DNA of 64,000 bases from an uncultured bacterium (GTDB lineage Bacteria; Chlamydiota; Chlamydiia; Chlamydiales; SM23-39). The notes beneath the pieces were generated by a model. The model saw nothing but the letters and a program-made list of their open reading frames with translations. It had not been told where the DNA came from and did not search any database. The DNA lies in NCBI GenBank assembly GCA_964594545.1, contig CAZQNB010000003.1, forward strand, positions 18,137-82,136, in the 5' to 3' direction. Below are positions 52,025-52,193 of this stretch, in pieces. The position numbers and the translations under genes were made by a program. The number at the start of each line of letters is the position of its first letter. The stretch's first letter is position 1.

Positions 52025-52193
52025 TATACCGTTCGTAATTGAAGAATCGGCGTTTGGACGGGATTGAAAGCTGTCAATAAATCGATTAAAAAAAGGGGGG
52101 TTGTATTCACTCAATACTAGCCCCCCTTTTTTTAATCGATTTTTGACGCTTTGAACCCGTCCAAACGCCGATTGTTCAATTACGAACGGTATA
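52025..52193. repeat. 169-bp palindromic TACC...GGTA element (family A), best-preserved copy
   Basis: tataccgttcgtaattgaagaatcggcgtttggacgggattgaaagctgtcaataaatcgattaaaaaaagggggg / cccccctttttttaatcgatttttgacgctttgaacccgtccaaacgccgattgttcaattacgaacggtata. Confidence 0.95.

Follow-up and report, generated by a model that had tools for sequence, protein, structure and literature searches.

What are the palindromic elements of about 165 bp that recur in a 64,000-nucleotide stretch of chlamydial DNA (contig CAZQNB010000003.1 of assembly GCA_964594545.1, from an uncultured environmental bacterium of the Chlamydiales lineage SM23-39; the whole stretch is called the window below), and how did one of them come to lie at positions 52027-52191? 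This focal element and its three closest relatives in the window, termed A-type here, are transposable elements of the miniature inverted-repeat kind (MITEs), that is, non-autonomous DNA transposons; elements with other ends are designated B-type and D-type. The explanation that best accounts for the data as a whole, and that we regard as quite probable, is that A-type elements are non-coding MITEs moved in trans at TA dinucleotides by a transposase of the IS630 family, that they gather at gene 3' ends, and that they most likely terminate transcription in both directions. The focal element, its parts, and the other three A-type copies are as follows.

52027-52191, minus strand (as given by its asymmetric core): the focal MITE, A-type, 165 bp, TACC...GGTA, with TA flanks at 52025-52026 and 52192-52193
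52027-52062, no strand: left terminal inverted repeat (TIR) and arm of the focal element; its first 24 nt equal the left inverted repeat of an IS630-type insertion sequence (IS) at 22/24
52156-52191, no strand: right TIR and arm of the focal element, assigned from its sequence and arm complementarity
52088-52133, no strand: central A7 / GGGGGG...CCCCCC stem-loop / T7 of the focal element; RNA folding free energy -17.8 (plus) and -15.2 (minus) kcal/mol, with U7 tails
52065-52154, minus strand: oriented core cassette of the focal element, composed of module TCAAAGCGYCRAAAATC, the hairpin, and module GATTTATYGRCAGCTTTCA
34936-35099, minus strand: A-type MITE between convergent genes, with TA flanks at 34934-34935 and 35100-35101; its left TIR equals the left inverted repeat of the same IS at 24/24
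7689-7852, plus strand: chimeric MITE whose left arm and terminator hairpin are A-type and whose right arm is B-type
31577-31709, plus strand: A-type copy truncated by loss of its left arm, lying inside the centre of a different palindrome, between divergent neighbours

That these repeats are real, far beyond chance, is evident from two comparisons: the arm 18-mer AATCGGCGTTTGGACGGG occurs six times in the window at up to three mismatches against 0.05 expected, and pairwise BLAST alignments of 120-170 nt between copies are 84-90% identical, at E-values of 1e-27 to 1e-59. They are no assembly artefact, since the independent Logan assemblies of SRR12762274 and SRR12762275 contain the same region at 99.9% identity; the Logan contigs break about 28 nt inside the MITE arms, as repeats would cause. 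Contigs of the same organism retrieved from Logan via two window proteins (2-4 kb) contained neither empty sites nor extra copies, an exact look-up with the EF-Tu sequence had no match, and an exact 18-mer of the A arm found only about 16 single chance matches, all in unrelated taxa, among 185,579 species genomes.

The first-pass annotation of the window had listed five elements and called this a high density. All five are present and the density is indeed high, but the count was too low, as the elements at 52700-52860 and 25648-25812 and a three-copy palindromic family had been overlooked; altogether, there are about 11 palindromic elements per 64 kb, among them the four A copies, the B copy, the D copy, and the element at 25648. 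The elements measure 161-168 bp, and no open reading frame (ORF) of at least 40 aa is confined to any of them. Long, nearly perfect arms, assigned to all copies before, are not a property of all: over 36-38 nt, complementarity is 97% in the focal element (52025-52062 / 52156-52193) and 95% in the copy at 34936-35099 (34934-34971 / 35064-35101), compared with 89% in B. The copy at 7689-7852 (7687-7854 with its flanks) has unlike arms, which share TACC/GGTA only, the right one being 98% identical to the right arm of B (49814-49870), and the copy at 31577-31709 is without a left arm. The palindrome hosting the latter has 43-nt arms (31534-31576 / 31700-31742, 84% complementary) around the centre CTGTATA/TATACAG and has no second copy in the window.

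When aligned in a common orientation, the elements reveal a modular build: the first arm (about 37 nt) is followed by the left module (TCAAAGCG(C/T)C(G/A)AAAATC), the hairpin in the middle, the right module (GATTTAT(C/T)G(G/A)CAGCTTTCA), and the other arm. Since either module is an imperfect inverted copy of its partner, every element is oriented; the copies at 7689, 31577, and 49709 are forward, and those at 34936 and 52027 are reversed. With a covariance model built from the core (R1), the minus strand of the focal copy scores 93 bits and its plus strand 68 bits. In the outer stem, four of six positions differ among the four A copies, always with compensation; among the TIRs, about 3 of 36 positions vary.

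The search for an IS with matching terminal inverted repeats, which the first-pass annotation had proposed, led to a complete element in metagenomic data. Scanning metagenome contigs with the A terminus (TACCGYTCGTRATTGAANAATCGG) yielded 12 loci, one of which (L099) is a 1119-bp IS, flanked by TA on both sides, that reads TACCGCTCGTGATTGAAGAATCGG...CCGATTCTTCAACTTTCTTGGGTA, its right end being ...GGGTA. Its left inverted repeat is the one identical to the left end of 34936-35099 at 24 of 24 positions, and its right inverted repeat has TACC plus TTGAAGAATCGG in common with the MITE. Most of the other loci are MITEs of 165-245 bp with like ends and other interiors, with TA beside every readable end. 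The 342-aa product of the IS matches Pfam DDE_3 (2.7e-33) and HTH_33 and reaches 207 bits on the NCBIfam model NF033545, 'IS630 family transposase' (cut-off 100). Its relatives in metagenomes number more than 2,400 at E<1e-80, mostly on contigs of about 1.1-2 kb, and species-genome relatives at 65-80% identity are overwhelmingly from chlamydial metagenome-assembled genomes (MAGs). One Waddliaceae MAG has more than 30 copies of such ISs, and REEB169, the MAG nearest to the window, has fragments of this transposase family at two loci (L173, L187). Every complete IS copy examined begins with TACC and ends with GGTA between two TA dinucleotides.

Two further observations concern the distribution of these ends. 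On L105, two same-orientation solo right ends of the A-type TIR (18-45 and 1881-1913) surround a 1.85-kb segment with a hypothetical gene and a D-Ala-D-Ala dipeptidase-like gene; the solo ends are either remnants or the ends of a larger unit. IS630 ISs of the chlamydial type, or MITEs, also occur on contigs labelled Acidobacteriota (L112-L114, L163, L166) and Patescibacteria, Fusobacteria, Methanosarcinales or Francisellaceae (L117, L118, L121, L214), which reflects either horizontal spread or contamination of the bins with multi-copy repeats from chlamydiae.

The flanks of the A family agree with IS630-type insertion. TA is present on both sides of all three complete A-type copies of the window and at the single readable end of the truncated copy, and the same holds for related metagenome MITEs, for Ap-type copies, and for the complete ISs. 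On L119, an IS directly adjoins a MITE whose ends match its own at 23/24, with one TA between them, which fits TA as a duplicated target rather than a part of the element; a shared single-TA junction also occurs on L231. Assignment of the whole set to IS630/Tc1-mariner-type transposition with TA duplication was thus correct for the A family, for which an IS630 IS with matching ends and TA flanks exists, but not for B, which makes a 3-bp TWA duplication; likewise, the termini TACC...GGTA between TA dinucleotides, attributed to all copies, hold for the A-type, whereas B is flanked by TTA on both sides, its right flank starting with TT. The two sister elements are as follows.

49709-49869, plus strand: B-type sister MITE, 161 bp, with TTA duplication at 49706-49708 and 49870-49872 and the shared core modules
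52700-52860, no strand: D-type element, 161 bp, beginning TACCATTTATGAG..., inside the centre of a family-C palindrome, with TTA duplicated at 52697-52699 and 52861-52863

Ends of this type begin TACCAA... or TACCATTTAT..., and all 14 complete B/D-type copies, namely window B and D and those from MAGs, have identical 3-bp TWA repeats. Reading these flanks as TA plus one extra terminal base is ruled out by the 4:4 ratio of TTA to TAA among B-type flanks after core orientation. Since the TWA repeats are found in 14/14, a different transposase probably moves the B/D family. A 3-kb candidate IS for such ends (L200) turned out to be a succinate dehydrogenase operon.

The 3-bp repeats raise the possibility that a single unusual transposase from outside the IS630 family, for example an IS5/Harbinger-type enzyme with a 2-3-bp TNA stagger, moves all of these elements, and that the match between A-type and IS630 ends is convergence or secondary capture. 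Such an enzyme would account for TWA around ends that are themselves TACC...GGTA and for the chimera with one A end and one B end, and no transposase was found in the window. However, A-type and Ap-type MITEs and the complete IS630-type ISs examined have TA and never a 3-bp repeat, convergence is not a plausible source of identity to the left inverted repeat of an IS at 24/24 nt, L119 carries both an IS and a MITE whose ends match, and about 1.3 Mb of chlamydial DNA, comprising all fetched loci, contained no IS with B/D-type ends. We consider a single enzyme of this kind very unlikely, and retain IS630-mediated movement for the A family.

Insertion itself can be followed at two sites. The copy at 34936-35099 overlaps the 3' ends of two convergent genes and provides the last codons and stop codons of both: RsfS now ends ...SSL/YRS before its stop codon, and a 273-aa protein ends ...NYLLF/YTARN before its own. 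The only homologue of the 273-aa protein is 70% identical and is encoded in the same order of SufE, 273-aa gene, and RsfS; its alignment stops at F268, which is the exact element boundary. In-silico excision of 34936-35099 together with one TA restores stops in both genes, at ...SSLE and ...NYLLF, and the target TA lies within the TAA stop of the 273-aa gene. The second site involves the nested D-type element: the uninterrupted family-C copy at 51512-51687 has the sequence ...GATATTACCCC, the filled one has CATATTA[TACC...GGTA]TTACCCC, and the former thereby constitutes a paralogous empty site for D with TTA duplicated. In addition, a locus syntenic with 9.5-13.8 kb of the window (L107) has a MITE upstream of surE, where there is none in the window; the spacer is not alignable.

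These sites bear on a third account, in which the elements are host terminators or palindromes resembling repetitive extragenic palindromic (REP) sequences, spread by recombination or by a RAYT/IS200-type enzyme without cut-and-paste. Palindromic structure, intergenic position at gene 3' ends, and the terminator-like hairpin would all be expected from it. It is contradicted by long TIRs identical to IS ends, constant TA or TWA direct repeats, the nested insertion with its paralogous empty site, and the copy inserted into coding 3' ends; to our knowledge, elements of the IS200/IS605 type make no target duplication. Moreover, the elements have no GTAG/CGTC head and, at 165 bp, are far above REP size. 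REP sequences are described as palindromes of 20-40 bp with a GTAG or CGTC head (PMC3733652). We regard this account as scarcely credible compared with transposition of the A family at TA by an IS630-family enzyme.

Bidirectional termination is suggested by the central hairpin of the A copies. In all four, a G+C stem of 5-7 bp and a GTATT/AATAC stem lie between A7-9 and T7-9; folded as RNA, these hairpins have free energies of -12.1 to -17.8 kcal/mol, with U7-9 on both strands. Only A-type cores are predicted in silico to be canonical bidirectional intrinsic terminators; an A-run, G-C stem, and T-run were claimed for the other copies as well, but B has a 20-bp stem (-40 kcal/mol) without A or T runs and without a U-tract. 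A-like elements with the A-run/T-run hairpin are also found in a second MAG (L203, L208), in contrast to B-type and other cores, which are without U-tracts. For this reason B/D-type elements are probably not terminators. Terminator-like sites of the same design belong to the host, after rpoC (49581-49614) and between convergent genes (50479-50501). A function of the A-type copies as portable terminators is plausible from these models.

The gene setting is in line with accumulation at 3' ends, which had been noted before for most copies and is true for four of those five window copies, two convergent and two downstream in tandem pairs, the remaining one being divergent. Among 18 copies for which both neighbours were called, with crude ORF calls, 7 lie between convergent and 11 between tandem genes and none between divergent ones (p about 0.006, with 25% expected). 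Many copies touch a stop codon or overlap it, as expected if TA/TAA in stops is a tolerated target. The chimeric copy at 7689-7852 lies between convergent neighbours, 9 nt past one stop codon and 10 nt ahead of the other, and the focal element lies 48 nt downstream of a 74-aa minus-strand ORF. The minus-strand ORFs at 51683-51934 and 52241-52465 are paralogues (about 77 and 74 aa) that have an N-terminus like a signal peptide and a hydrophobic GWGIGL segment; both end at or just before a palindromic element. The orientation of the core relative to the upstream gene, 8-9 co-oriented copies against 3 anti-oriented, is not significantly biased (p about 0.07-0.11).

The interior of the elements has a history of its own. 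Scanning species genomes with the right module gave 77 loci against about 17 expected by chance, of which about 45 are in chlamydial MAGs and the others are single matches inside unrelated genes; about 24 loci in one MAG are of the B'-type. We aligned 21 distinct cores of 88-98 nt from the window and at least nine MAGs. The RNAalifold prediction is a single long hairpin, in which 20 of the 38 pairs show double changes that compensate each other. Paired cells amount to 96.4% versus 82.4% in shuffles, with slid controls at 33-46%, and 20 pairs are changed on both sides versus 12.9 +/- 1.3 in shuffles (0/500). The modules with their two bulged A's, a T.T mismatch, and the apical GTATT/AATAC stem are near-invariant; a middle stem of about 19 bp and the loop are free to vary. 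B has only the modules and the apical GTAT...ATAC stem in common with A, and arms of six or more types (A, Ap, B, B', D', F, G, H) carry the same core.

Such a pattern invites the interpretation that the core of about 90 nt is itself the selected unit, a structured RNA or a single-stranded DNA element recognised by a protein (e.g., a stability or processing signal in the 3' untranslated region, or a recombination site), with the arms as vehicles and the terminator as a derived version. The same oriented core on unrelated arms of about 37 nt, with fixed modules, bulges, mismatch, and apical stem, the constant total length, a stem of about 19 bp saturated with compensatory changes next to fixed modules, two arm classes with different target duplications, and the trend to co-orientation with the upstream gene all speak in its favour. 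Yet an exact match to one module served to retrieve the copies, so that module conservation is partly ascertainment; rate heterogeneity is nonetheless shown by the diverged stem between the modules in these copies. Mismatches of the G.U and A.C kinds occur equally often (13 versus 17 cells), and because of this there is no sign of selection on one RNA strand; the trend in orientation falls short of significance. Rfam 15 returned only tRNAs at the gathering score, and at E<=1 sub-threshold miRNA-precursor models, which are generic long hairpins; we know of no candidate binding protein for the core. Recombinational reshuffling of MITE modules explains enough, and selection on the core appears unlikely to us. 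Similarly doubtful is the broader suggestion that the core cassette is functional cargo, linked over and over with six or more types of arm and with two transposition chemistries (TA and TWA) and dispersed among environmental Chlamydiae, with the A-type lineage remodelled into a mobile bidirectional terminator on stop codons. In one MAG (CAZZLR01; L217, L225, L239, L251) there are B'-type variants of about 102 bp without the whole central hairpin, deleted between TCGA repeats of the two modules.

For the A family, the following course of events is proposed. Its termini of about 24 nt are the inverted repeats of an IS630-family IS widespread in Chlamydiae, to which a transposase supplied in trans would bind via its helix-turn-helix domains; the enzyme would excise the element and re-insert it at a TA dinucleotide, with TA duplicated. 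This chemistry is the one expected from knowledge of the IS630/Tc1-mariner family; the TA duplication is shown by the present data. The interior does not derive from the IS and is instead the oriented hairpin cassette of about 90 nt, common to the B family and to other arm types in other chlamydial genomes, which in A-type elements has a G+C-rich stem-loop between A7-9 and T7-9 and could act as an intrinsic terminator on either strand. Elements would accumulate at gene 3' ends because TA/TAA targets are abundant around stop codons and insertions there are tolerated; once inserted, they can supply new C-terminal codons and stops, as at 34936-35099, and most likely terminate transcription from both sides.

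Several points weigh against this reading. The window contains no transposase, as the first-pass annotation had already stated (tblastn best E 3.4), so a cognate IS of this organism is putative; a top transposase homologue, followed up to seek the cognate IS in the same sample, came from another one. Identity between MITE and IS stops at nt 24, hence an A MITE is no simple deletion derivative of the IS. TACC...GGTA ends between two TA dinucleotides cannot by themselves tell TA duplication from TATACC ends, and for the A family we infer duplication from the shared-TA junctions together with family knowledge; no DNA-level orthologous empty site was obtained for any A-type copy, and one A-like MAG copy (L203) is flanked by ATA and TTA. 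Termination is predicted in silico, and the A hairpins escaped a simple terminator scanner, which needs uninterrupted stems, as theirs carry an internal mismatch. The truncated copy sits between divergent genes, and rpoC has its own terminator upstream of B. Finally, compensatory changes in a palindrome can arise by templated correction at the DNA level, with no need for selection on an RNA hairpin.

Several other palindromic sequences of the window deserve mention. One complete element is related to the families above:

25648-25812, plus strand: related element, 165 bp, TAGTGCTTCCAGTTGAAAGG...CACTA with TA on both sides and convergent neighbours; covariance model R1 74 bits, E 4e-16

This element was picked up by model R1. 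Its ends in full are TAGTGCTTCC...GGAAGCACTA within TA flanks, and its diverged core reads AAAAGCCTC...CAATATT, loop, AATATT...GAGAGCTTTT; the same core variant is found by R1 in MITEs of the IS-rich Waddliaceae MAG. A separate hairpin with 22-nt arms lies just upstream (25566-25625). Family C, of about 170 bp, has three copies (12679-12847, 51512-51687, and 52598-52938) with common inner arms and outer portions of about 20 nt that differ; its centre, GGGGTAATA...TATTACCCC, resembles two outward-facing TACC-type ends, and the third copy is split by the nested D-type element. The B-type element lies 3' of rpoC and of the terminator hairpin of rpoC, and it is followed directly by a perfect 36-nt palindrome (49873-49908, AGACCTCTTGCGTAACC TA GGTTACGCAAGAGGTCT), at whose centre a Logan contig from the same organism stops. 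Loci linked to rpoC in 15 related chlamydial MAGs had no A or B element 3' of rpoC, the intergenic DNA being too diverged for precise empty sites. The window encodes tRNA-Thr, tuf, tRNA-Trp, secE-nusG, and rpoBC as well as a V-ATPase operon, and MAGs labelled Chlamydiae, Parachlamydiales, or (wrongly) Verrucomicrobiota match the C-terminus of its RpoC at 85% identity. Within the ORF at 3777-7679, which encodes a 1300-aa protein with a pro-kumamolisin (sedolisin) activation domain, 7-8 tandem 273-bp repeats at 5607-7571 correspond to Big_7 Ig-like domains.

In the window, the elements form a dense layer of intergenic DNA, rewrite protein C-termini, and break short-read assemblies, and they may provide ready-made two-way terminators between convergent genes. 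One core across several end types and two duplication lengths makes a tractable case of modular MITE evolution, and the elements are a practical marker for binning and assembly of chlamydial MAGs. The Waddlia genome paper speaks only of 'numerous repeated sequences', and environmental chlamydial genomes have been noted as repeat-rich. We found no description of MITEs in Chlamydiae in the literature, and a 2024 review of prokaryotic MITEs is without mention of the phylum.

The closest parallel is RUP of Streptococcus pneumoniae, the TIRs of which match those of IS630-Spn1 and which inserts at TA; its mobilisation in trans was inferred from that similarity (PMC2229807). RUP elements also insert into one another and cluster (PMC10969869). 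Both groups consist of small non-coding elements that bear the ends of an IS630-family IS and are inserted at TA, and mutual insertion and clustering are seen in the chlamydial elements, too. In contrast to the A family, RUP is 107 bp long, resides in a Firmicute, has no sequence similarity, and is without a built-in A-run/stem/T-run terminator or a core common to other TIR classes. SPRITE is another dispersed small repeat, whose core resembles a Rho-independent terminator (PMC10969869; PMC3049150). A terminator-like core in a dispersed repeat recalls the A-type; however, SPRITE has no tie to IS630-type TIRs with TA duplication and is unrelated in sequence and host phylum.

Correia elements (NEMIS/CREE) of Neisseria are palindromic MITEs of about 105-156 bp with TIRs of about 26 bp and TA duplication, present at about one per 8 kb; they form long RNA hairpins, affect the expression of neighbouring genes, and occur in full-length and internally deleted short forms. 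Palindromic build, TA duplication, abundance, and long hairpins are traits of the chlamydial elements as well, and the B'-type short forms (L217, L239, L251) recall the deleted forms; in sequence the two groups are unrelated. Promoters and an IHF site are found in Correia elements, unlike the A-type with its predicted bidirectional intrinsic terminator, and no cognate transposase is known to us for them, whereas one is identified for A-type ends. Nezha MITEs and ISNpu3-like IS630 elements of cyanobacteria are, as the A family, IS630-derived MITEs with TA duplication, in another phylum and with another sequence; we are aware of no terminator cassette reported for Nezha. Tourist-type MITEs and the PIF-Harbinger and IS5-family groups make 2-4-bp TNA duplications, with 3-bp TWA as the hallmark, and this is the duplication (TTA/TAA) of the B/D-type; the ends of the B/D-type, however, start with TACC like IS630-type ends, and no IS5/Harbinger-type transposase with matching ends was found among the fetched loci. 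Overall, IS630-derived MITEs are well known from RUP, Nezha, and probably Correia, and the chlamydial ones are apparently undescribed; the features most worth attention are the conserved core on end types with different duplications and its version predicted to be a bidirectional terminator.

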